Source of the DNA: an uncultured virus (IMG/VR IMGVR_UViG_3300023105_000021)
Lineage: Duplodnaviria; Heunggongvirae; Uroviricota; Caudoviricetes
Reading direction: 5' to 3' (one strand)
IMG/VR virus record: IMGVR_UViG_3300023105_000021
DNA: 64,000 bases
Part shown: in pieces, positions 16,064 through 64,000 of the stretch
Layout: every line of letters begins with the position of its first letter
Numbering within the stretch: position 1 is the stretch's first letter
The notes under the pieces: model-generated
Told to the model about the DNA's origin: nothing
Seen by the model: the letters and a program-made list of their open reading frames with translations, nothing else
The model's database searches: none
Translations under genes and position numbers: made by a program

Positions 16064-17487
16064 TGCAACATTTTTATGATGGACAAATACGTAGATATCT
16101 TACACAAATAGTTAGATTGTTTGGACAATTTAGTTATAAAGACGGTAAGGGTAGACTAGTACAAGTTCCAGTTACATACGGCGACTTAACAAGACAAGTA
16201 GGAAGTATCCTTAGAGATAATTCTGAAAATAAAATTCCTAGCGCACCAAGAATGGCTGTGTATATAACCGGACTAGAAATGGATACTTCACGTCTAGCAG
16301 ATAGCAGTTATGTTAATAAGCTAAACATTAGAGAACGTGCATATGATGTAGACGGCCAAGAATATTTAAATAAAGCAGGTAAAAATTATACAGTAGAACG
16401 TATAATGCCAACCCCTTATACTCTTACTGTAAACGTAGACATATGGACTACTAATACGGATCAAAAATTACAAATACTTGAACAAATTTTTATGTTGTTT
16501 AATCCTAGTTTAGAAATACAAACAACAGACAATTATATCGATTGGACTAGTTTAAGTGTTTTAAATATAGATAACATAAACTTTAGTAGTAGAAGTATAC
16601 CAACTGGTACTGAAAGTGAAATTGATGTTGCTTCGATTAGTTTAACAACACCTATCTTTATTAGTCCTCCTGCAAAAGTTAAAAAATTAGGAGTTATTAG
16701 TAAAATAATTACAGCAGTATTTGCAGATCACGGATTAGAAGTTAATATAGACGAAACTGCTTACACACAAAGTTTAGTTGAACAAAAAATTAAAGAGAAC
16801 GAAGAAACAGACAAAGTTAATAGTCAACCAGATGAAGCATTGACTAATGAAAGTGCATTAGTAGTAACTACATATCAAGATTATGGATTAGAAGTGTTTG
16901 ATGGTGTTGCAAGATTATTAAAGAATGGTGTTAATCGAAACGATACATGGACTGCTTGGAACATTGCGCAACCATTTACATTTGAACCTGGAATTACACA
17001 ATTACGATTACAACGTGCAAACGGTTTAGAAATAGTATTTACTATTGATAGTATTGATACTACAGACGAAACACGACTTATACTAAATGCTCCTGATGCA
17101 GAAACATTACCAGCAGATTCTGTTATACCAGGTCCTGCTGGTGACAAAACATATGTTGATTATATTATAGATCCACTAAGATTTGATCCAATGCAATCGC
17201 AATCAAATAATAGACTTTTATTATTAGGTAGTATAGGTGATCCTAATAATACTAATGGCGCTCTGGCATGGAAGAATTCAGATAACTCAGATTTTGTAGC
17301 AAGTGAAAATGATATTGTAGAATGGGACGGTTCACGCTGGCACATTGTTTTTGATGCTAGTGAAGAAACTAACGAAGCATTTGTAACTAATCTAAACACA
17401 CAAACACAATACAAATGGACAGGCGAGTATTGGATACTCTCTTATGAAGGAGAATATCCAAATGGCTCTTGGAGGTTTACATACTAA
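16063..17487 (+). CDS. gp15: Tail completion / sheath terminator (gp15-like) with C-terminal extension
   Basis: HFYDGQIRRY, VPVTYG, PRMAV, MPTPYTL, QILEQI...FNP motifs. Confidence 0.75.
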   Translation: MQHFYDGQIRRYLTQIVRLFGQFSYKDGKGRLVQVPVTYGDLTRQVGSILRDNSENKIPSAPRMAVYITGLEMDTSRLADSSYVNKLNIRERAYDVDGQEYLNKAGKNYTVERIMPTPYTLTVNVDIWTTNTDQKLQILEQIFMLFNPSLEIQTTDNYIDWTSLSVLNIDNINFSSRSIPTGTESEIDVASISLTTPIFISPPAKVKKLGVISKIITAVFADHGLEVNIDETAYTQSLVEQKIKENEETDKVNSQPDEALTNESALVVTTYQDYGLEVFDGVARLLKNGVNRNDTWTAWNIAQPFTFEPGITQLRLQRANGLEIVFTIDSIDTTDETRLILNAPDAETLPADSVIPGPAGDKTYVDYIIDPLRFDPMQSQSNNRLLLLGSIGDPNNTNGALAWKNSDNSDFVASENDIVEWDGSRWHIVFDASEETNEAFVTNLNTQTQYKWTGEYWILSYEGEYPNGSWRFTY

Positions 17488-17500
17488 GATAATTATTAGT

Positions 17501-17932
17501 ATGAAAGACATTATTTGTAGTGGTGCATTAATTTATTCTCTAAAGTCTAAAATGTTTCTATTTCTGCATAGAGCAAACGGAAGCCGTAATAATGTTTGGG
17601 GCTTAGTTGGTGGAACTAACGAAGGTTTAGAAACACCCTGGGAAGGTTTGCGCAGAGAAATTGAAGAAGAAATAGGCTCTATAAATATAAAGAAAACTAT
17701 TCCTTTAGAAACATTTGTATCTAACGATTCTAAGTTCCAGTTCCATACATATCTTTGCGTTATCGAAGATATTTTTATTCCTAAACTTAATAACGAGCAT
17801 GACGGATTTGCTTGGGTAGAATTTAGTAAATGGCCGAAACCTTTACACTCAGGTTTGCAAAGCACTCTCAATAGAAAAAGTAATATTACTAAATTAAAAA
17901 CAGTAATCGAAGTAATAGATTTACTTGACTAA
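17501..17932 (+). CDS. NUDIX hydrolase
   Basis: Nudix box GGTNEGLETPWEGLRREIEEEIG; likely start MKDIIC at 17501. Confidence 0.85.
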   Translation: MKDIICSGALIYSLKSKMFLFLHRANGSRNNVWGLVGGTNEGLETPWEGLRREIEEEIGSINIKKTIPLETFVSNDSKFQFHTYLCVIEDIFIPKLNNEHDGFAWVEFSKWPKPLHSGLQSTLNRKSNITKLKTVIEVIDLLD

Positions 17933-17953
17933 TAATCATAAAGGTAGTATAAT
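17925..17953 (+). promoter_or_regulatory. sigma70 promoter of the heptose operon
   Basis: TTGACT-17 nt-TATAAT, ending 5 nt before ATG 17959. Confidence 0.85.
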
Positions 17954-17958
17954 AAATT

Positions 17959-19101
17959 ATGTCTAAAGTATTAGTTATTGGTGATTTAATAAATGATAGG
18001 TATATTTTTGGTTCTTCGACTAGGTTAAGTCCTGAAGCACCTGTACCTATTGTAAGTCAGGATCGTATAGAAGAATTTCTTGGTGGCGCAGGACTTGTTT
18101 ATAACAACTTAAAAAGTTTAGGCGTCGATGCAACTTTATTAGAATACGACGATCCAAAAAGTGAAAAAACTCGTGTAATCTGTGATGGCCATTATGTTAC
18201 AAGAATAGACGACGATCGTTATGCTAACGGATTAGATATTTACAATGATATTAAAAAATTAGATTTATCTAATTTTGAATATGTTATTCTTAGCGATTAC
18301 AATAAAGGTGTATTAGAATATTCAAAAGATATTATTGCACATCTTAATAGTTTTGATTGTAAAGTTATTGTAGATCCTAAACGCCACGTTAGTTGTTATG
18401 ACGGGGCTTGGTTAGTAAAACCTAATTACAAAGAATACAAAGAATTAGGGTTTGAAAAATGGGACGGTAATATAATTGTCACTAATTCTAGTAAAACTAC
18501 TACTGCTGAATTTGATTTAAAACGTTATGTTTCGCAACCTGAACCTTTAGAAGTTAATGATGTAACCGGAGCCGGAGATTGTTTTCTTGCTGCATTTGTT
18601 TATGCGCTAACTAAAGGGTATGATTATCAAAAAGCATTAGATTTAGCAAATAGAGGATCAACTGAAAGTGTAAAACACGTAGGTACATATATTCTTACTG
18701 AAAAAGACTTGAATAAACGTATTGTTTTTACTAACGGATGTTTTGATGTATTGCACAAAGGTCATCTTACATTACTAAAAGAAGCTCGCAGTTTAGGTGA
18801 TAAACTTGTAGTAGGACTGAATAGTGACGGTAGTGTAAAACGCTTAAAGGGAGACAACAGACCGTTTAACGATCTTGAAACAAGACGAGAACAATTAGAA
18901 CTTATTCCGTATGTAGACGAAGTTATTGTATTTCATGAAGATACGCCATATGAGCTTATTAAAGAACTAAAGCCAGACTTAATTGTTAAAGGTGGAGACT
19001 ATACTGTAGAAGAAATTGTAGGACATGATTTAGCACCTGTGCATATTGTACCTACAGTACAAGGTTACAGTACAACAAAAATTTTAGAGGCGTCTGTATG
19101 A
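17959..19101 (+). CDS. hldE: Bifunctional heptose-7-phosphate kinase / heptose-1-phosphate adenylyltransferase
   Basis: VLVIGD, RLSPEAPVP, SDYNKG, VDPK, DVTGAGD (PfkB kinase) fused to FTNGCFDVLHKGH, GLNSD.SVKRLKG..RP, KGGDY, YSTT. Confidence 0.92.
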   Translation: MSKVLVIGDLINDRYIFGSSTRLSPEAPVPIVSQDRIEEFLGGAGLVYNNLKSLGVDATLLEYDDPKSEKTRVICDGHYVTRIDDDRYANGLDIYNDIKKLDLSNFEYVILSDYNKGVLEYSKDIIAHLNSFDCKVIVDPKRHVSCYDGAWLVKPNYKEYKELGFEKWDGNIIVTNSSKTTTAEFDLKRYVSQPEPLEVNDVTGAGDCFLAAFVYALTKGYDYQKALDLANRGSTESVKHVGTYILTEKDLNKRIVFTNGCFDVLHKGHLTLLKEARSLGDKLVVGLNSDGSVKRLKGDNRPFNDLETRREQLELIPYVDEVIVFHEDTPYELIKELKPDLIVKGGDYTVEEIVGHDLAPVHIVPTVQGYSTTKILEASV

Positions 19102-19916
19102 AAATTTTAATTACTGGACACAAAGGATTTATTGGACAAAATCTAACTCTTAGATTACAAGACGAACACGAGCTATCAGGATATGAATGGCAAGCTGATT
19201 ATTTGCCTGAAGTTGAAGGCTATGATTGGGTTATTCATTTAGGTGCTATTTCAAGCACAGCTGAACGTAATGTTGATAAGATCATGTTACAAAATTATGA
19301 ATTTTCAAAATGGTTGTTTAATCAATGTAATCTAAAAGGTGTAAATTTTCAATATGCATCTAGTGCAAGTGTATATGGACCATACGAAAAGTTTAAAGAA
19401 GAAGATCCAAAACAACCACAAAGTCCGTATGCTTGGAGCAAGTATCTTTTTGATAGATGGGTTACTGGACTCTCAAAAAGAAACATTATAGTTCAAGGAT
19501 TTAGATATTTTAATGTATACGGTCCTTTAGAAGACCACAAAGGACATCAAGCAAGTCCTATAACTAAATTTACTAATCAAGCAAAAGAAACTGGTACTAT
19601 TTCTTTATTTGAAAACAGCGACAAATACAAAAGAGATTTTATTTTTGTAGGCGATGTATGTGAAGCACATAAAAAATTATTATCTAGTGATGTTTCCGAC
19701 ATTTATAATATAGGAACAGGAACTACTACAAGTTTTCAACAAATAGCAGACATTATTGCTAAAAAATATGATGCAAAAATTAAATATGTACCGATGCCGG
19801 ATCATTTAGCAAATCAATATCAAGAGTACACATGTGCAGACAATTCAAAATTAAGTAATATTGTAAAAATTAATTTTACAACAGTAGAGGAATATATAAA
19901 TGGATCAGCCAACTAG
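19098..19916 (+). CDS. hldD: ADP-L-glycero-D-manno-heptose 6-epimerase
   Basis: TGHKGFIG, HLGAISST, YASSASVYG, YAWSK, FRYFNVYGP.E.HKG, YQEYTCAD. Confidence 0.88.
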   Translation: MKILITGHKGFIGQNLTLRLQDEHELSGYEWQADYLPEVEGYDWVIHLGAISSTAERNVDKIMLQNYEFSKWLFNQCNLKGVNFQYASSASVYGPYEKFKEEDPKQPQSPYAWSKYLFDRWVTGLSKRNIIVQGFRYFNVYGPLEDHKGHQASPITKFTNQAKETGTISLFENSDKYKRDFIFVGDVCEAHKKLLSSDVSDIYNIGTGTTTSFQQIADIIAKKYDAKIKYVPMPDHLANQYQEYTCADNSKLSNIVKINFTTVEEYINGSAN

Positions 19917-20286
19917 AAAGTCAGGTGTAGATCAAAAAGGTTGGGGCTACGAAATGATTTGGGCCACAAATGATTTATACTGCGGAAAAATTATGGTGTT
20001 TACTAGAGCTGGAGCAAAAACTAGTATGCACTTTCATAAAGAAAAAGACGAAACTTGGTTTGTAAACAACGGCAAATTTAAGGTTGCATACATTGATACA
20101 AAAAATTCAAAACTACATGAAAAAGAACTTAATGAAGGCGAAGTTTGGAGGAATCCTCCATTACAGCCACATCAATTAATTTGTCTTTCGAAAGAAGGAA
20201 GTGTTACAGAAGTTAGCACTCCAGATAGTGTTGAAGACAACTATAGAATTATTCCCGGCGACAGTCAAGTATTAAGCGAAGAATAA
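19900..20286 (+). CDS. Cupin-fold protein (sugar isomerase-like)
   Basis: KGWGYE, SMHFHKEKDETW, PLQPHQL, EVSTPD..EDNYR. Confidence 0.75.
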   Translation: MDQPTRKSGVDQKGWGYEMIWATNDLYCGKIMVFTRAGAKTSMHFHKEKDETWFVNNGKFKVAYIDTKNSKLHEKELNEGEVWRNPPLQPHQLICLSKEGSVTEVSTPDSVEDNYRIIPGDSQVLSEE

Positions 20287-20287
20287 A

Positions 20288-20986
20288 ATGTATAGCATAA
20301 ACTGGAGCAATAAAAAATCAGACAACACTGTATCCGATAAAAAAGAATCTGCGATTCGATACAGTACAGATAAAACAGAAGAAGAATATAATATTCCATT
20401 CTACGATACTGTGAATAATATTGCACCAAAAGTTGTTGTAGGTTTAGATAGAGACGGTGTTATTAATGTTGATCGTGGAGACTATACCTACAAGGTAGAC
20501 GACTTTGAACCGATCGAAGGTAGTTTAAAAGCAATAGCTAAAATTCGTAGACTAGGTCATAAAATTGTTATTATAACAAATCAAGGCGGTATAAGTAAAG
20601 GCATTTATACTCAAAACGATGTTGACACTGTACATAATCATATGTTTAATTTATTAGGTGAAGCAGGCTGTGCAAGTATAGATGCTCTTTATTATAGCGA
20701 AACTAGTGCTAGATGGGACCAGTATGCAAAACCTAATACCGGTATGTTTAAAAGATGTGAAAAAGAATTTCCTTTTATTAAATTTTCAAAAGGATTTTAT
20801 GTAGGCGATAAAATATCAGATCTAAAAGCTGCTTTTAAAATGGGAGCAAAGCCTGTACTAGTAAAAACAGGCTACGGAAATGAAACGTTAAAAGAACTTA
20901 ACAAGTTTTCTAATCAAAAAATTAAAAAGAAAACTATTGTTTTTGATAATTTATCTAGCTTTGCTGATTGGTTATCTCGTCGATAG
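20288..20986 (+). CDS. gmhB: Heptose-1,7-bisphosphate phosphatase (HAD family)
   Basis: LDRDGVIN, ITNQGGI, KPNTGM, VGDKISDL, LVKTGYG. Confidence 0.85.
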   Translation: MYSINWSNKKSDNTVSDKKESAIRYSTDKTEEEYNIPFYDTVNNIAPKVVVGLDRDGVINVDRGDYTYKVDDFEPIEGSLKAIAKIRRLGHKIVIITNQGGISKGIYTQNDVDTVHNHMFNLLGEAGCASIDALYYSETSARWDQYAKPNTGMFKRCEKEFPFIKFSKGFYVGDKISDLKAAFKMGAKPVLVKTGYGNETLKELNKFSNQKIKKKTIVFDNLSSFADWLSRR

Positions 20987-21578
20987 CTATTCCAAAATTT
21001 GCACTAATAGTGGATCTTAATTCATCAGCCTTGTGTGTTGATACATAATGATCTAAACTAGCAGGAAAGAAAATAATATCCCCTTCTTCTAGCGGCGGCG
21101 TAACTCTTCTTCCCATAAACGGTTTGTTTGTAAAGCATTGTGCAAGATGTACCGGAAAATGACTGTAACTAGAATCATAAAAAGAAAAACTTGCACTGTT
21201 TGGTGGTAACTTTAACATATATGCACAGCTAATTACTAAATTTCCACCACTATGGGAATGTACTTCTTGGTATTGTCCTTTTGTATATCTATTTGCCCAT
21301 GCTTGTCCGTACATTTTTTCACATGCTTCTTGTGACAATCCTATAGAATATGCATATTCGTCTACTAAATTATAAACAGTTTTAAAAAACAAATGCCAAG
21401 GAAATAAACTATTTTTTTCATCATTTTGAATTGTTGTTCTACAGTCACAATCCCAAAATGTTGCTTGATCAAAATTATCTTCAGACTCAATAAAAGGAGT
21501 AAATCCTTTTAAAATTTCTTCGTGATTAGGCATTTTTGTTTTATATACAGGTGTGCCAAAAATTACATTAAGACTCAT
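20955..21578 (-). CDS. 2OG-Fe(II) oxygenase superfamily protein
   Basis: WANRY..G.YQEVHSH, EGDIIFFPASLDHYV, RSTISANF. Confidence 0.8.
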   Translation of the reverse strand: MSLNVIFGTPVYKTKMPNHEEILKGFTPFIESEDNFDQATFWDCDCRTTIQNDEKNSLFPWHLFFKTVYNLVDEYAYSIGLSQEACEKMYGQAWANRYTKGQYQEVHSHSGGNLVISCAYMLKLPPNSASFSFYDSSYSHFPVHLAQCFTNKPFMGRRVTPPLEEGDIIFFPASLDHYVSTHKADELRSTISANFGIAIDEITNQQS

Positions 21579-23361
21579 TTTTTACCTTTACTAACTTTTT
21601 CTTTTCTGGCAAATACAAATATTCAATTTTACTTTTTGCTAGTGTATGGAATGCATCTTCTAAAGTTTCAACTAGAGGATCGCCGCCTAAATTAAAACTT
21701 GTATTAAAAATAATCGGACAACCTGTCTTTTCTTTAAAGGCTTTAATCAAATCATAGTAGTTTGCATTTTGTTCTCTGTTAACAGTTTGAATACGGCAAG
21801 TTCCGTCTACGTGAATAATAGCAGGAATCTTTTCTTCTACTCCGGGCTGACAATTAACAGCATACATCATTGTAGGAGAGTTTTTCATACCTCGCAAGTC
21901 AAACCATTCATGCACATCTTCTTCTAGAATAGATCCTGCAAATGGGCGGAAATATTCTCTGTTTTTAACACGATTTACAAAATCTTTTCCGTCAGGATCT
22001 GTTGGATCATAAAGAATACTTCTATTACCTAATGCACGTGGGCCGTTTTCACTACGTCCTTGAAATATTGTAACAATATTTTTGTTTGTAATTAAGTCGA
22101 TAACATCTTCATTAGTAGCATCTGTAACTTCGGCAGAGTATTTTTTTGCTAGTTGTTGGATATCACCTTCTGTAATTTTATAATCTGGTCCTAGATAAAC
22201 AGTTTCAGCTTGAGAATCAATCGACATATCTTTAGTAAGACTTCTATGTAACCACAATGCTGCACCCATTGCAGTGCCGCCGTCATTTGAAACCGGCTCT
22301 ACATAAAGATTAATATCATTGTCTATCTCTTTTAAATAATGATAATTTGCAACACAATTCAACCCATATCCACCGCTTATAACAACATTTTTAATTCCTG
22401 TAGATTCAACAGCATGTTTTATTAGTTGAGTTACCGCTGCTTGAGATTCTACTTGTACTGCATATGCCATATCTCTTCTATTTTGGCATAGTGTTGCATC
22501 TTCTTCACCTTTGTCAATCAAATAACTATATAAATTTTCGTTTAGAATAGAACCGTTTGGATATCTCGGAACAAATAAACTTCTATTACTTACTGGAATA
22601 GGCAAATCAGTATATGGATCAAATACCGGAGGAATTAAATCATTAGGTTTACCATATGGAAATAATCCCATAGTTTTTCCAGCTTCAATGGCATCCCAGC
22701 CACAGTATTCTGTTACACCCTCATAACACTTAACAATGCCTGCTCTATCAGATAACGAAGTTGAAAATTTACCTATTTCTTTACCAAAAATATCTTGATC
22801 AGGTGCTGTAAGTTCTGCTGTTGGCAGATAGTCTCTACAACCCATAGTTTTAAAAAGAGTTTGTATATTGTCTGGATATGTACATTTATATAATGTTTCA
22901 GTTTCCCACATATGTTTTATAGATCCGTCAACTTCTAAATCAAAACAAGTCCCAGCACCGTCAACAATAACTGCTACTGCTTCTTCAAAGCCACTTCTAT
23001 AAAATGCTAAACTGGCATGCATTTTATGATGTAGTTTAGATACATCGATTACTTGTGGATGCGGATCCCAAGGCGGAGAATACTCTATTAGACCTACTTT
23101 TCTAGCAAGACCTGTGTAAATATCCTCAGCAGTATAATCAACTCTACCAGCTGTTTCTGCAAGAGTTTGTGTATGCGATATTACCATGTAATCAAGTTTG
23201 TCTGTATACTCTAAAATTTTTAGAATTGACGCTAACGGTCCTCCATCGTACTTTTTACGAGTAAGTCTTTCTTCTTCAATAGAAAAAACTATTTCTCCAT
23301 CTTTTAATAAGCATACTCCAGCATTGTGTCCTCTAGCAAGTCCTGCTATCCACATACTCAT
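21568..23361 (-). CDS. O-carbamoyltransferase (NodU/CmcH/TobZ family)
   Basis: GHNAGVCL, EEERLTRKK, HHKMHA, VDGAG, GKTMGL.PYG, SGGYGLNCVAN, GPRALGNRS, REYFRPFA, HVDGTCRIQTV, NTSFN. Confidence 0.92.
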   Translation of the reverse strand: MSMWIAGLARGHNAGVCLLKDGEIVFSIEEERLTRKKYDGGPLASILKILEYTDKLDYMVISHTQTLAETAGRVDYTAEDIYTGLARKVGLIEYSPPWDPHPQVIDVSKLHHKMHASLAFYRSGFEEAVAVIVDGAGTCFDLEVDGSIKHMWETETLYKCTYPDNIQTLFKTMGCRDYLPTAELTAPDQDIFGKEIGKFSTSLSDRAGIVKCYEGVTEYCGWDAIEAGKTMGLFPYGKPNDLIPPVFDPYTDLPIPVSNRSLFVPRYPNGSILNENLYSYLIDKGEEDATLCQNRRDMAYAVQVESQAAVTQLIKHAVESTGIKNVVISGGYGLNCVANYHYLKEIDNDINLYVEPVSNDGGTAMGAALWLHRSLTKDMSIDSQAETVYLGPDYKITEGDIQQLAKKYSAEVTDATNEDVIDLITNKNIVTIFQGRSENGPRALGNRSILYDPTDPDGKDFVNRVKNREYFRPFAGSILEEDVHEWFDLRGMKNSPTMMYAVNCQPGVEEKIPAIIHVDGTCRIQTVNREQNANYYDLIKAFKEKTGCPIIFNTSFNLGGDPLVETLEDAFHTLAKSKIEYLYLPEKKKLVKVKNES

Positions 23362-59572: not shown

Positions 59573-60859
59573 TTAAAATAACATGCTATAAAGCAATGCT
59601 CTACTTTTACTTATTACTTCGTCTTGATAGTTATTTTCATTAACGAAGTATAACCCTGTTTTACCTGTTCCTTGTGCTTTCGAATATAATTTGATACCTT
59701 CTAACGGAGGATTAGGATCTAATAAAATATCATCATCACCAGGTGTTTTAGTTATTTCTAATGTATCTTTAATTTTTACAGAACCGATACCAGAACTTGA
59801 TAAAACTAAATCATCATTACTTGACGATGTAAATATTTCAGTTCCTTTAATTTCAATATCTGCAAGATTTATTCTATTATTATAGAAATTAGTAATATTG
59901 TTGCCTTCAACGGTAATAGATATTTCTGATTCAGCAGAAACAGTTCTTCCTGAATTACTTACATAAAAACTTTTATCTGCACCAATTGAATTTGCATCAA
60001 ATTCAAAAGATGTTGACGAAGGAACATCGGTAACTGTCCAGCTTCCTATTAACGATTGAAGAATTGCGTCATTAGGACTTGATTGCACTCCAGTTATAGT
60101 TACTGTATCGTTAATAGCAAAACCGTGACTGTTTTGAGTTGTTACTAGTGTTCTAGGTCCAACTCCGATAATATTTAAAATTACGTTGTTTTTATCAACA
60201 ACTTCAATTGATGAATTATCTTCTTGGATTTTATCAATAACAACAGTTGCTAGACTATAATCAACAATATCTCTAACTGCTTTTGCATTAGGAATGTTAT
60301 CATCGTCTTGTGTAATTTCATTAGTAATAGGATCTGGTGTAATAACACCGTTATCGTAATTCCAAATTTTTAGTTCATAATTGTTTGTGCCTGAAACACT
60401 TATAACTCCGTCATTAGTGTCAACATATAAATTATGATCTGATACTATACCCGAAGTCTTAATAGGAAGTATTTGTTCTGCACCAATATCTCCTTGGGTG
60501 CCTATCCAAGCACCTATTCCTGTAACTCCGCCTAAGTCCCAACCAATGCCATCGTCATACACCCATCTTGAATTTGCTAGAGATCCTCTTTCAATTTCTA
60601 TTCCTGAGCTTCTAGGTCTATCTAACGATACAGGTAATCCTGAAGATGTATTTCCTGCACTTAAAAGAAGAATGTTATCGTCTATAGTAGCTATAATCGA
60701 TTCAATTGTAGTTGTACCACCGTTTACTTCTAAATCACCTTTAACAACAACAGTTCCGCTCAAATTTCCTGTTGCGTTAGTTGTATCAAGAGTGATGGTT
60801 CCGCCGTCACCTGTTATTATTCGATAATCTGTATCTGTGGTTCTTATAATCTTTGGCAT
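59573..60859 (-). CDS. Virion structural protein
   Basis: V.GDL.V.G.TTTIES....IDDNILLL, SGIEIERG and DDD.IPNAKAV.D fibre-type motifs. Confidence 0.65.
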   Translation of the reverse strand: MPKIIRTTDTDYRIITGDGGTITLDTTNATGNLSGTVVVKGDLEVNGGTTTIESIIATIDDNILLLSAGNTSSGLPVSLDRPRSSGIEIERGSLANSRWVYDDGIGWDLGGVTGIGAWIGTQGDIGAEQILPIKTSGIVSDHNLYVDTNDGVISVSGTNNYELKIWNYDNGVITPDPITNEITQDDDNIPNAKAVRDIVDYSLATVVIDKIQEDNSSIEVVDKNNVILNIIGVGPRTLVTTQNSHGFAINDTVTITGVQSSPNDAILQSLIGSWTVTDVPSSTSFEFDANSIGADKSFYVSNSGRTVSAESEISITVEGNNITNFYNNRINLADIEIKGTEIFTSSSNDDLVLSSSGIGSVKIKDTLEITKTPGDDDILLDPNPPLEGIKLYSKAQGTGKTGLYFVNENNYQDEVISKSRALLYSMLF

Positions 60860-60870
60860 TCGAAATTCCT

Positions 60871-60892
60871 AAAAAGGGGCATTAAGCCCCTT
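60871..60892 (-). terminator. Rho-independent terminator
   Basis: aaaaaggggc-atta-agcccctt directly after the 129-aa gene. Confidence 0.7.
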
Positions 60893-60895
60893 AGA

Positions 60896-61285
60896 TTAGA
60901 TTGCAGTTAATACTAGTACGTTTGCTGTTGAATCGTCAGTAACAGTCCATGTATAACGATTGTTATTAAAATCAAACATTGTACGGTTGTGTACTTTACG
61001 AATGTTTACAGCACTTTCTCCGGCTACAAAACCTTGTAGAACCATTTCGTTAGCTGCTAGTGATCCAATTGCTTTGTCAACTAGTGTACATACACCTGTG
61101 TTACCTGATGTTCCATCTGGATCATCGTGACAGTTAAATTTTGTTTCTGAGCGTTGTGATAAAATTACACCGTTGCCAACTGCTGCGTTAGCACCAATTT
61201 TACACATTACTGTTAGGTTATTACCTTCAGTACCTGCTGAACCTTCAGTAGCACCAAAGTATCTTTTGTTTAATGGGCGTCCCAT
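60896..61285 (-). CDS. Hypothetical protein near capsid gene (possible head protein)
   Basis: 129 aa, MGRPLNKRYFG start, AAGGAG RBS, own TAAATA promoter and terminator. Confidence 0.7.
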   Translation of the reverse strand: MGRPLNKRYFGATEGSAGTEGNNLTVMCKIGANAAVGNGVILSQRSETKFNCHDDPDGTSGNTGVCTLVDKAIGSLAANEMVLQGFVAGESAVNIRKVHNRTMFDFNNNRYTWTVTDDSTANVLVLTAI

Positions 61286-61391
61286 AATTATCTCCTTTGT
61301 TTAATCATTGCCGTTCTAGGGTCTACGCGGTGAGTTTCCGCATAAGTCCTCAATAGAGGCTCCTATATGACAATAGTATTTATCCAAAGAG

Positions 61392-61418
61392 AAAAAAGCC
61401 CGCACAGTGGCGGGCTCT
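61392..61418 (-). terminator. Rho-independent terminator after the candidate ncRNA
   Basis: Minus strand AGAGCCCGC-CACTGT-GCGGGCTTTTTT; no CDS lies immediately upstream. Confidence 0.85.
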
Positions 61419-61422
61419 AAGA

Positions 61423-61639
61423 ATAAGCAAAATAGGTAGGACTCGGTTACACCTACAAGCCGCGGACCAAATACCATTTCATCTCCGCAACAACCTGCTT
61501 CCGCTCGGTAGAGCGATGTGACACTGCCTGTTTCCAGTACAACGCCTGGGTACCACCCCTAAGCAGTCAAGTTCGACGCTCTGGTAAACGCCTCTTCCTT
61601 GCACTATAAACATTGACTAGCTAAGTCTTTGTTGCTTAT
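61423..61639 (-). ncRNA. Candidate structured non-coding RNA (~217 nt)
   Basis: GC-rich island with paired ends (AUAAGCAA/UUGCUUAU), at least 6 internal stems, upstream sigma70-like promoter and downstream terminator. Confidence 0.7.
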
Positions 61640-61645
61640 GTTATT

Positions 61646-61673
61646 AATATAACATCTTTATAGTAAAAGTCAA
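61646..61673 (-). promoter_or_regulatory. sigma70-like promoter for the candidate ncRNA
   Basis: TTGACT-16 nt-TATATT with a TG extended -10. Confidence 0.65.
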
Positions 61674-61755
61674 CCACTTTTTATAGAAAATTAATGATTT
61701 TCTGCAAGATTTTTTTTAAAAAGTGTGTTTAAATAATAGTTGAAAGGAGAGCATT

Positions 61756-61827
61756 ATGTGGACAAAACCTAGCTATACTGAAATGCGTTTTGGCTTTGAA
61801 GTTACAATGTATGTAATGAACAAGTAA
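61756..61827 (+). CDS. pqqA: Pyrroloquinoline quinone precursor peptide PqqA
   Basis: Manual translation MWTKPSYTEMRFGFEVTMYVMNK*; W.KP leader and E-x-x-x-Y core (EVTMY); AAGGAG RBS at 61744-61749. Confidence 0.92.
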   Translation: MWTKPSYTEMRFGFEVTMYVMNK

Positions 61828-61837
61828 AAATGTAGTC

Positions 61838-61865
61838 AAAAAAATAGGCCCCGTAGGGCCTATTT
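61838..61865. terminator. Terminator between convergent gp23 and pqqA, probably bidirectional
   Basis: aaaaaaataggccc-cgta-gggcctattt. Confidence 0.8.
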
Positions 61866-61886
61866 CTAGTTTTTTACAACTATAAC

Positions 61887-63062
61887 TTAGCTAAATGTTA
61901 CGCCTGCGGCGATATCAACTTTACCTAAGTAGTCAGCTGCGTTACCTAGTGATGACGCAGTGTTTGTAAGCTCAACATAACCATAACGTGTCATAAATGA
62001 TACTGTTGGTTCGAATGTTGATGGATCTAGTACAACACCTGAGCTCATTAGTGGGATATATGGGCAGTAGAACGCTGCTGCGTCTGACTCGCTTGATCCT
62101 TTATAACCAATAAGAACTGGTGCAGTATCTGATGCATATGTGTTAACATATACTTTCATTGCGTTGTTCAATGTACCAACCATTTTTGTGTTAGTTGGTG
62201 CTTCGAATGTACCTTCTGTTGTACGAGCGAACGCTGAAGTAGTTGCTGACTGTAGGATTGTTAGCGCGAATGGGCTAACAACTGCCCAGTTACCAGCACC
62301 ACGTCTTGTACGCTGTGCAATCAAGTTTGATACTCTGTTGATTTGAACTGCTAGTGCAGCATGTTCGTCACCAACAAAAGTAGCTGTACCTGAAACGGCT
62401 GTTTGATCATAAGTTTCAGTAGCAGCGCCTGCTAGTGAACTTAGTGAGCCTAGTACTTCTTGGTCGATTTCAGCAGTAATCTCTTGAGCAAGTGCTGCCA
62501 TGATTTCTGCTTCAACGTCAATACCGTGCTGTGATTGAGCATCTTGTGCCGCTTCGAATGTCCAGCGAGCTGATAGCTTTCTGGTTTTCGCTTCGACAGT
62601 TTGTTTCAAGATTTGGATTGACATTCTGTTACCAGCCTGTCCTTCAAGTGCTGCTGTTGCCGCTGCGCGGTCAGTTGCTGCATCACCTGAATATCCTTCT
62701 GCAATCTTGAACGGTGATAGTGCTTCTTCACCAGCAGTAGCTGAAGTGCCACCTGTGCTAGTAAAGTCGTCGCTATAACGTACTCTTAGTGTGTGGATTT
62801 GACCCACTGGACCTGTCATTGGCTGAACACCAACCAACTCGTTTGCAATAACGGTTGGCATAACACGTCTGATAACTGGTAGGATAACTCTGTTTAGAGT
62901 TGCTACATTACCGGCAGAAGTTGCACCAGCTGTTGCTGATTCTGAAAGATACTTACGAGTATTTTCTAGAGTCGCTTCCATAACAGCTTTCTTGTTGCCT
63001 TTTAGGCCTTCAACAAGTGCAGTCTTAGTGTCCTGCCAGCGACTTTCTAATAGTTCTGACAT
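61887..63062 (-). CDS. gp23: Major capsid protein (gp23-like)
   Basis: LPVIRRVMP..IANELVGVQPMTGPVGQI, VEAKTRKLSARWT.E.AQD, EIDQE, FYCPYIPL, FMTRYG. Confidence 0.97.
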   Translation of the reverse strand: MSELLESRWQDTKTALVEGLKGNKKAVMEATLENTRKYLSESATAGATSAGNVATLNRVILPVIRRVMPTVIANELVGVQPMTGPVGQIHTLRVRYSDDFTSTGGTSATAGEEALSPFKIAEGYSGDAATDRAAATAALEGQAGNRMSIQILKQTVEAKTRKLSARWTFEAAQDAQSQHGIDVEAEIMAALAQEITAEIDQEVLGSLSSLAGAATETYDQTAVSGTATFVGDEHAALAVQINRVSNLIAQRTRRGAGNWAVVSPFALTILQSATTSAFARTTEGTFEAPTNTKMVGTLNNAMKVYVNTYASDTAPVLIGYKGSSESDAAAFYCPYIPLMSSGVVLDPSTFEPTVSFMTRYGYVELTNTASSLGNAADYLGKVDIAAGVTFS

Positions 63063-63078
63063 TTTGATTTCTCCTATA

Positions 63079-64000
63079 TTATAATCCAGCTAGACGCTTA
63101 ATGTCAATGACATTACCGTCTGCGCCTGCTTGTGAACTAACGTTAGTTTGCGAATATTCGCGGTTGCCTGTAACTTCTTTGCCTTCTGCTAAAACTGCCT
63201 TCTTCTTAGCCGGAGTATTACCGTCGATTACCGCCGGTAGGTATTTGTCAAACGCAGACTGAAGTCTGTCTGTTTGTACTGATTCCAGTAAGTCTGTCAT
63301 AATTTCACGTTGAGCTTTGCCTAATGGCGCAACTAAATCGTTCAATTTCTTTTCTCTCTTTGCAGATTCAATTAATACAGCTTTTTCTTTTACTGCTGAC
63401 TCTGCAAGCACTTTTGCTTTGACAGCTAACGCTTTATTTTCATTGATCTGTTTATCTTTAGTTTCAATAACTTTCAATAATTTTGCAGTCTCTGATTTTT
63501 CGTTTAAGTAGCTGTTTGCATATTCTGAAGCAAAAGCTTCGAATACTTTACGACCGAAGTCGTTTTTACGTGCTGCTTCAATGTCATCTTTAAGTTGACT
63601 AATTTCTTTATTAAGATTTTTACCAACTGTTTCTGACACCAAGTTTGCACTTTTAGCAACAAATTCTTTTTGAACTGCTGCAAATTTTTCTTTGGCTTCG
63701 CGTACAAGACGTACTTTAGTTTCAGCCAAGTCTTTTTTATCTTCGTAAAACTCTGCAATTTCTTTTGCAAGTGCTTCTACCACAAATTCTTCAAGTTGTG
63801 TGAACTTTTGTGCTACTGCTTTTTGATCTTCGTGAAGTTCGCTAACTTCTTTCTTTAGCGATTCTAATACAAAGTTTTTAAGTAGAGTTGCATTTTCACG
63901 TTGTGCAACAGCATATTTTGCTTTTGCTTCAGCTAGACCTTTACGATCTTCTGCAAACTCTGCAAGCTCTGAACTAAGACGCTCTTCTAATAGCTTGTCA
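63079..64000 (-). CDS. gp22: Prohead core scaffold protein (gp22-like), 5' end beyond window
   Basis: Frame stays open to the window edge (DKLLEERLSSELAEFAEDRK...); Glu/Lys coiled coil; directly upstream of gp23. Confidence 0.75.
   Translation of the reverse strand, partial: DKLLEERLSSELAEFAEDRKGLAEAKAKYAVAQRENATLLKNFVLESLKKEVSELHEDQKAVAQKFTQLEEFVVEALAKEIAEFYEDKKDLAETKVRLVREAKEKFAAVQKEFVAKSANLVSETVGKNLNKEISQLKDDIEAARKNDFGRKVFEAFASEYANSYLNEKSETAKLLKVIETKDKQINENKALAVKAKVLAESAVKEKAVLIESAKREKKLNDLVAPLGKAQREIMTDLLESVQTDRLQSAFDKYLPAVIDGNTPAKKKAVLAEGKEVTGNREYSQTNVSSQAGADGNVIDIKRLAGL

Follow-up and report, generated by a model that had tools for sequence, protein, structure and literature searches.

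The 64,000-nt stretch of uncultured phage DNA analysed here (referred to throughout as the window) carries, next to a capsid gene, an open reading frame of 72 nt that an initial annotation had read as a stand-alone gene for PqqA, the peptide from which the cofactor PQQ is made. This raises the question of whether so short a frame is a genuine PqqA gene and, if it is, what a phage would gain from carrying the precursor on its own. According to the available part of Coutinho et al. (2020; PMC7678222), PqqA is a ribosomal precursor in which a Glu and a Tyr are cross-linked by PqqE with PqqD and excised to yield PQQ (its references 50–51), and one peptide is spent per PQQ molecule.

The peptide translated from window positions 61756–61827 (+) was MWTKPSYTEMRFGFEVTMYVMNK. 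The upstream frame is closed by an in-frame TGA at 61741–61743, and a longer reading of pqqA is therefore impossible. In the two profile searches that the initial annotation had proposed, the peptide scored 46 bits against PF08042 (cut-off 21.1, E = 4.5e-12, model positions 1–19 of 19) and 47 bits against TIGR02107 (cut-off 20, E = 1.5e-12, model positions 1–21 of 21); because both scores are more than twice the cut-off and cover the full model, the frame lies far beyond a chance ORF. The Glu-x-x-x-Tyr pair is present as Glu15-Val-Thr-Met-Tyr19, and the N-terminal Trp-x-x-Pro leader, the part of PqqA that is recognized by PqqD, is represented by W2 and P5. The claim that this ORF is a genuine PqqA gene is confirmed. 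No PDB entry matched the peptide by sequence at E up to 1. The exact peptide was absent from a collection of 15 billion proteins, which is consistent with gene callers missing pqqA and says nothing of its rarity.

The gene lies within a bona fide phage genome, with terminase, sheath, tube, portal, protease and gp23 genes around it, and its host homologue is the pqqA of Methylophilaceae. The genes of the window, among them those for the large terminase, tail sheath, tail tube, baseplate wedge proteins and tail fibres as well as ORFs of 3740 and 2616 aa, make up the structural module of a T4-like myovirus. The gp23-type neighbour of pqqA (391 aa, 333 bits against its Pfam family) is most similar, among named phages, to proteins of ∼350 kb jumbo phages (67–71% identical). 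The nearest record (G001; 98,563 bases, rated 28% complete) has 98% of the sampled words in common with the window and carries the same pqqA. In a Pfam scan of 44 ORFs of the G001 flanks and 20 window ORFs, T4 portal, prohead protease, UvsX, gp32 and sugar-modification genes were matched. No PqqB, PqqC, PqqD or PqqE family was found in the window or the G001 flanks by PHROGs and Pfam scans, and no PQQ-dependent dehydrogenase was found in the 98.5 kb of G001 (∼28% of the genome). The initial statement that the window lacks pqqB–E therefore holds, and the proposed search for pqqB–F beyond it, which with ∼28% of the genome covered gave no PqqB–E family in the flanks, leaves pqqA standing alone in the visible part of the genome. 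Rfam at gathering thresholds and ARAGORN returned nothing in the window. Large blocks of sugar and cell-envelope genes were observed at window positions 17444–23361 and in L332 (2454–19804); these encode a heptose kinase/adenylyltransferase, an epimerase, a carbamoyltransferase, 2OG-Fe(II) oxygenases, KDO-8-P synthase-like and CMP-KDO synthetase-like proteins, sulfotransferases, glycosyltransferases and a Vut_1 transporter.

Table 1. Features of the pqqA locus, in window coordinates.
Feature	Position	Strand	Remarks
pqqA cassette	61691..61833		143-nt insertion relative to pqqA-less relatives
Late-type promoter-like motif TTTAAATAAT	61728..61737	+	TAAATA at 61730–61735
Shine-Dalgarno AAGGAG	61744..61749	+	6-nt spacer to ATG
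pqqA	61756–61827	+	23 codons + TAA, ATG start; Glu15 and Tyr19 form the E-x-x-x-Y pair
Bidirectional intrinsic terminator hairpin	61842..61865		10-pair stem; pqqA (+) and gp23 (−)
gp23-type major capsid protein, convergent neighbour	61887..63062	−	PF07068, phrog_138

The signals described initially were all located (Table 1). The strong AAGGAG ribosome-binding site is present, and GGA was likewise found within 45 nt upstream of 120/123 viral and 114/116 bacterial pqqA copies examined. T4-type late promoters have a box resembling TATAAATA close upstream of the late genes, at a fixed distance. The TAAATA late-type motif that had been proposed for pqqA starts at −26 from the ATG, and TAAATA starts 26–32 nt before the ATG in ten of the 42 window genes, pqqA included, where ∼0.16 would follow from how often the motif occurs overall (71 sites, counting both strands). 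The other nine genes, mostly tail and baseplate genes, all have ATAAATA at −26 to −32; the pqqA box TTTAAATAAT is one base off this form, and the same box is found in an inverted copy of the cassette in another phage (L295, described below). A late-type promoter at pqqA, with this box as the candidate motif, is plausible. The terminator that had been ascribed jointly to pqqA and gp23 is a hairpin that serves both strands: CTAGTTTTTT comes after it on the + strand, and on the − strand, past gp23, a T-run does.

The boundaries of the cassette were obtained from relatives of the window phage, which were fetched as 80 IMG/VR loci with a capsid protein 82–100% identical to that of the window. In pqqA-less relatives gp23 ends in the same hairpin. 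In L254, L257 and L286 the blastn match that includes gp23 and the hairpin stops at ∼61834 and is taken up again directly at 61690, so that window positions ∼61691–61833 (143 nt) represent an insertion, with the gp23 terminator on one side and, on the other, the promoter of the next minus-strand unit. The inserted DNA carries its own promoter-like box, Shine-Dalgarno site and ORF and uses the pre-existing gp23 hairpin, from the opposite side, as its terminator. A PqqA-like ORF was present in 2/80 of the loci within the DNA available for each; 61 of the 80 extend at least 300 nt past gp23, and since pqqA occurs there in only two of these 61, the gene is dispensable for the lineage. L295, in which the gp23 DNA is 80% identical, has a pqqA cassette in the same intergenic gap; its 107-nt promoter-to-stop unit is 89.7% identical to that of the window, inverted, co-directional with gp23 and equipped with its own terminator. 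Five large relatives were searched over their full length, and one of them, G067, has pqqA in a third location, beside gp32. The inverted copy and this third site indicate that pqqA is an accessory gene that, in the T4-like family, was inserted or relocated on more than one occasion. Of the repeats sought around the cassette, none was a clear mark of inversion or of a target site; all that was found was an imperfect inverted repeat of 17 nt (88% complementary; 61675–61691/61709–61725) at the left cassette edge, with one arm next to the manA promoter described below and the other ahead of the pqqA promoter box. This repeat may be left over from the inversion by which the window phage and L295 differ.

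Another pqqA was observed on a 72-kb IMG/VR contig (G070), where it is surrounded by host-like energy genes (L336, 273–11123): a curlin-repeat protein, a 624-aa PQQ-dependent dehydrogenase (PF01011, 150 bits), a 946-aa formate-dehydrogenase-like molybdopterin oxidoreductase, a SoxY-SoxZ fusion and RNA polymerase omega. This run is a methylotrophy island of a jumbo phage, comparable to the case of Coutinho et al. (2020), or else host or chimeric DNA.

On the opposite strand, upstream of the cassette, two RNA motifs were matched below their gathering thresholds. The manA RNA motif (RF01745) at 61426–61626 (−) scored 49.8 bits (gathering threshold 55.2, E 1e-11) and is flanked by a promoter-like site at 61673..61646 (−) and a terminator at 61418..61395 (−); the overlapping stretch ∼61427–61651 is 77% identical to an unannotated spot in Pelagibacter phage Mosig. 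RNA-library contigs over 61426–61639 and 61442–61597 had depths of 175–525, and the manA-motif stretch looks like a discrete, abundant small RNA. The freshwater-2 RNA motif (RF02980) at 61283–61360 (−) scored 45.3 bits (gathering threshold 49.9) and ends in the Shine-Dalgarno site and ATG of a 129-aa ORF (60896–61285, −) for which no family match was found in PHROGs or Pfam. Blastn similarity somewhere in 61240–61710, which includes both motifs, was seen in 23 of the 50 capsid relatives whose flanks extend far enough. The GC-rich structured stretch upstream was considered as a part of pqqA and rejected because it is on the opposite strand.

The gene was then sought in other phages. Blastn with the locus returned Venkman (91%), MEP301, MEP401, MEP402, P19250A and one spring-water podovirus; all six loci contain an intact 23-aa PqqA with a Shine-Dalgarno site, and the matched spots in the six records bear no feature on that strand. 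A tblastn search, run with the peptide against 50,697 phage records, gave 12 records. Ten of the 12 are methylophages or the spring podovirus, namely the six records found by blastn and four Melnitz isolates with a 24-aa PqqA beside tRNA-Leu, and the remaining two, labelled 'Acinetobacter phage', are bacterial contigs with pqqBCDE. One of these (L331; CAKLQF020000010.1, 'Acinetobacter phage MD-2021a') has ppk, pqqB–E and ordinary chromosomal neighbours and is bacterial. Intact pqqA is thus present in every methylophage record returned by the pqqA searches (Venkman, MEP301, MEP401, MEP402, P19250A and the four Melnitz isolates), a statement that leaves room for methylophages without pqqA elsewhere in the collection. 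The main texts of the isolate papers on the cultured methylophages, P19250A aside, mention no pqq gene. Gene callers skip the 23-codon pqqA or call the wrong strand, and it is therefore absent from the annotations of these phages. A hypothetical protein is annotated opposite pqqA at L330 2461–2556 (Melnitz gp152) and L007 2067–2195 (MW202481); in Venkman, MEP301, MEP401, MEP402 and P19250A the site bears no annotated feature.

In IMG/VR the degenerate core pattern EMRFGFEVTMYV matched at least 119 contigs. The neighbours of these copies are phage genes, most frequently YqaJ (31 loci among the matches listed), with Sak, ERF, capsid, RegA, gp32, clamp loader, Gp23, terminase and portal also represented. 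From the 438 ORFs neighbouring the IMG/VR matches listed, 188 clusters were formed, and among the 110 cluster representatives (from clusters with two or more members or with a representative of 200 aa or longer) no PqqB–E family was found. Among the carriers of pqqA are T4-like phages that are strictly lytic, and at least three unrelated phage types are represented.

The same core pattern occurs in at least 123 places in bacterial genomes. Of the 80 listed, 69 are named Methylo- (Methylophilus, Methylotenera, Methylovorus, Methylobacillus, Methylopumilus and Methylophilaceae among the matches listed), one is an Acidovorax MAG and the rest have higher-rank labels only. The best bacterial and viral copies among the matches listed have 62–64 of 72 bases in common with the window gene. 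By sequence, the peptide core EMRFGFEVTMYV is of the Methylophilaceae type, and our best inference for the window phage is a Methylophilaceae host, which may be marine or freshwater. The resemblance to Methylophilaceae PqqA that the initial annotation had suggested is thereby substantiated. Matches to pqqA were found in 61/61 Methylophilaceae genomes (median 5, range 1–12; three in each of the 1.3-Mb genomes), where matches per genome are not strict copy numbers; three to 12 copies are given for the family in the available part of Beck (2014; PMC4109929). These many copies stand against one set of pqq enzymes, and a PqqB-like ORF lies just downstream of only 4/84 bacterial pqqA copies examined. 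Most host copies examined are therefore orphans, and linkage to pqqBCDE is not required of a PqqA family member. The available part of PMC9851590 reports that pqqA transcripts follow the rate of PQQ synthesis in a PQQ-overproducing strain; together with the multiple copies, this points to precursor dosage as a controlling quantity.

Selection was assessed on 125 viral copies (six from GenBank and the 119 listed from IMG/VR), which comprise 113 distinct DNA versions. Among the copies listed W2, P5, N22 and the stop at codon 24 were found in 125/125, with several synonymous codons in use (three Pro codons at Pro5). Over the ten codons outside the search pattern pN/pS was 0.248 for the 125 viral copies listed versus 0.258 for the 128 bacterial copies listed, and by this measure pqqA is shown to be under purifying selection in phages, like the host copies. 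As the IMG/VR set was retrieved by an intact-core pattern, its counts of intactness are biased; the copies free of this bias, namely the six GenBank loci found by blastn and Melnitz found by tblastn, are all intact. The commonest viral peptides are also the commonest bacterial peptides among the copies listed, which is expected of a substrate and not of a decoy. Residues 6–7 are Ser-Tyr in the window versus Ala-Ala in most copies listed. Tyr7 was found in 1/125 viral copies listed; this copy is DNA-identical to that of the window and probably comes from the same phage. Tyr or Phe at position 7 is present in bacterial copies too.

We consider it likely that pqqA is a host-derived auxiliary gene with which a T4-like jumbo phage feeds precursor to the PQQ pathway of its host. 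The mini-gene would have been captured from a Methylophilaceae host. On expression, its 23-aa product would be taken up by the PqqD and PqqE of the host and cross-linked between Glu15 and Tyr19, after which host PqqB, PqqC and proteases would process it to PQQ. A lytic phage may silence host transcription, whereby the host supply of precursor would be lost; with one peptide spent per PQQ, the phage copy would sustain the supply of precursor for the PQQ-dependent methanol dehydrogenase, from which the cell draws its energy. The same supply logic was proposed by Coutinho et al. (2020) in the available part of PMC7678222. The earlier reading that the phage feeds the consumed substrate to its host is supported by the profile matches, the solitary gene and the host type; the boost in PQQ that it added is one that we infer. 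Several points count against the supply reading: a late gene leaves little time for a multi-step maturation, TTTAAATA is off-consensus relative to the ATAAATA of the nine other genes, and pqqA is missing from most of the capsid relatives. PQQ is also a recycled cofactor, and the gain within a single infection is uncertain. In RNA-library contigs (four libraries, window 60800–63200) the bin 61691–61771 had no cover in any run and the 3' half of pqqA had depths of 1–11, from strandless contigs that may include DNA. One contig, also strandless (61791–61946, depth 3), bridges pqqA, the terminator and gp23 with no mismatch.

Alternatively, the gene could be a neutral passenger or recombination scar derived from a multi-copy, highly expressed host locus, perhaps a former attachment site. 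The many orphan copies in host genomes, the sporadic occurrence of pqqA among the capsid relatives and the 17-nt inverted repeat at the cassette edge would suit such an origin, which we nevertheless regard as unlikely: similarity to other phages and to hosts does not reach beyond ∼11 nt from either end of the ORF, every copy comes with its own Shine-Dalgarno site, and neither frame nor length nor stop is lost over the 113 DNA versions, with pN/pS of 0.25, among the copies listed. The gene is found, moreover, in strictly lytic T4-like phages as well as in at least three unrelated phage types. An attachment site in particular was rejected because nothing outside the ORF is similar and lytic T4-like phages are among the carriers.

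It is improbable that the peptide acts as a decoy or regulator that occupies host PqqD/PqqE or another target and thereby alters or blocks PQQ synthesis. Such a role would agree with a solitary pqqA without any pqq enzyme in 98.5 kb, with the apparent late-type control and with the rare Ser-Tyr at residues 6–7 (Tyr7 in one of the 125 viral copies listed). Glu15, Tyr19 and the whole core are unchanged, however, albeit in a core fixed by the search pattern; the peptides most often seen in phages are the same as those most often seen in hosts among the copies listed, the strength of selection equals that on host copies, and some bacterial copies, too, have Tyr or Phe at position 7. A chimeric assembly or contamination of the metagenomic contig with host DNA, which the uncultured origin of the window and the fragmentary state of its nearest record (G001) might suggest and for which the initial annotation had advised a check, is very improbable, since the locus is identical over 2601 nt in an independent contig of the same phage (L250, 100%), the 72-nt gene is identical in another (L102), the different phage L295 has the cassette in the same gap, the RNA-library contig 61791–61946 spans pqqA, terminator and gp23 with zero mismatches, and both flanks are phage sequence common to the relatives.

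Beyond supply of precursor by the window phage, we suggest tentatively that pqqA may be the signature auxiliary gene of Methylophilaceae phages, in the way that psbA is for cyanophages, acquired repeatedly by unrelated podo-, sipho- and myovirus lineages as a self-contained mini-cassette. If so, the supply of precursor peptide, and not the PQQ enzymes, would fail first in an infected methylotroph, the 23-codon gene by itself could serve as a simple marker from which the hosts of uncultured phages are inferred (at least 119 IMG/VR contigs), and phages may be the vehicle that multiplies orphan pqqA in host genomes. Methylophilaceae, the marine OM43 clade included, take up a large part of the methanol set free in lakes and coastal seas, and the sole enzyme by which methanol enters their metabolism needs PQQ. 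If phages must bring the PQQ precursor, infection would alter methanol turnover and precursor supply would be a weak point of the pathway.

Phage-borne PqqA is already in print for T4-like Methylophilaceae phages, and the window is not the first of its kind. Coutinho et al. (2020; PMC7678222) reported PqqA in the T4-type Lake Baikal population VP_266 (35% GC, predicted Methylophilaceae host) and interpreted it as an auxiliary gene for methanol oxidation, and virus-encoded pqqA is listed in the available part of a 2026 reservoir study (PMC13188868). The VP_266 phages resemble the window phage in having PqqA, a T4-type genome and a predicted Methylophilaceae host; they also carry a methanol dehydrogenase, whereas none was found in the 98.5 kb of the window phage. 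This comparison is by description and not by sequence, and the available part of PMC7678222 gives no cassette anatomy for VP_266. The literature search returned no paper stating that pqqA is in every cultured methylophage record returned here, giving the exact boundaries of the 143-nt cassette or describing two orientations and three sites within one T4-like family. The orphan chromosomal pqqA genes of Methylophilaceae likewise encode 23 aa, often an identical peptide, with their own Shine-Dalgarno site and terminator and no adjacent pqqB; the window copy differs in lying in a phage structural module behind a late-type motif and in having Ser-Tyr at residues 6–7, where most orphan copies listed have Ala-Ala. 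The cultured methylophages have an intact 23–24-aa PqqA with a Shine-Dalgarno site, 73–96% identical to the window peptide, but belong to other phage families and place the gene among other neighbours. Cyanophage psbA is a host-derived, rapidly consumed component of energy harvesting that is found across unrelated phages of one host guild. It is not a member of the same class and works alike, in that a host-derived and rapidly consumed component would be supplied in both cases. The expression and function of psbA are supported by experiment, whereas pqqA is known here from sequence alone, and the product of psbA is a protein subunit, whereas that of pqqA is the precursor of a cofactor.
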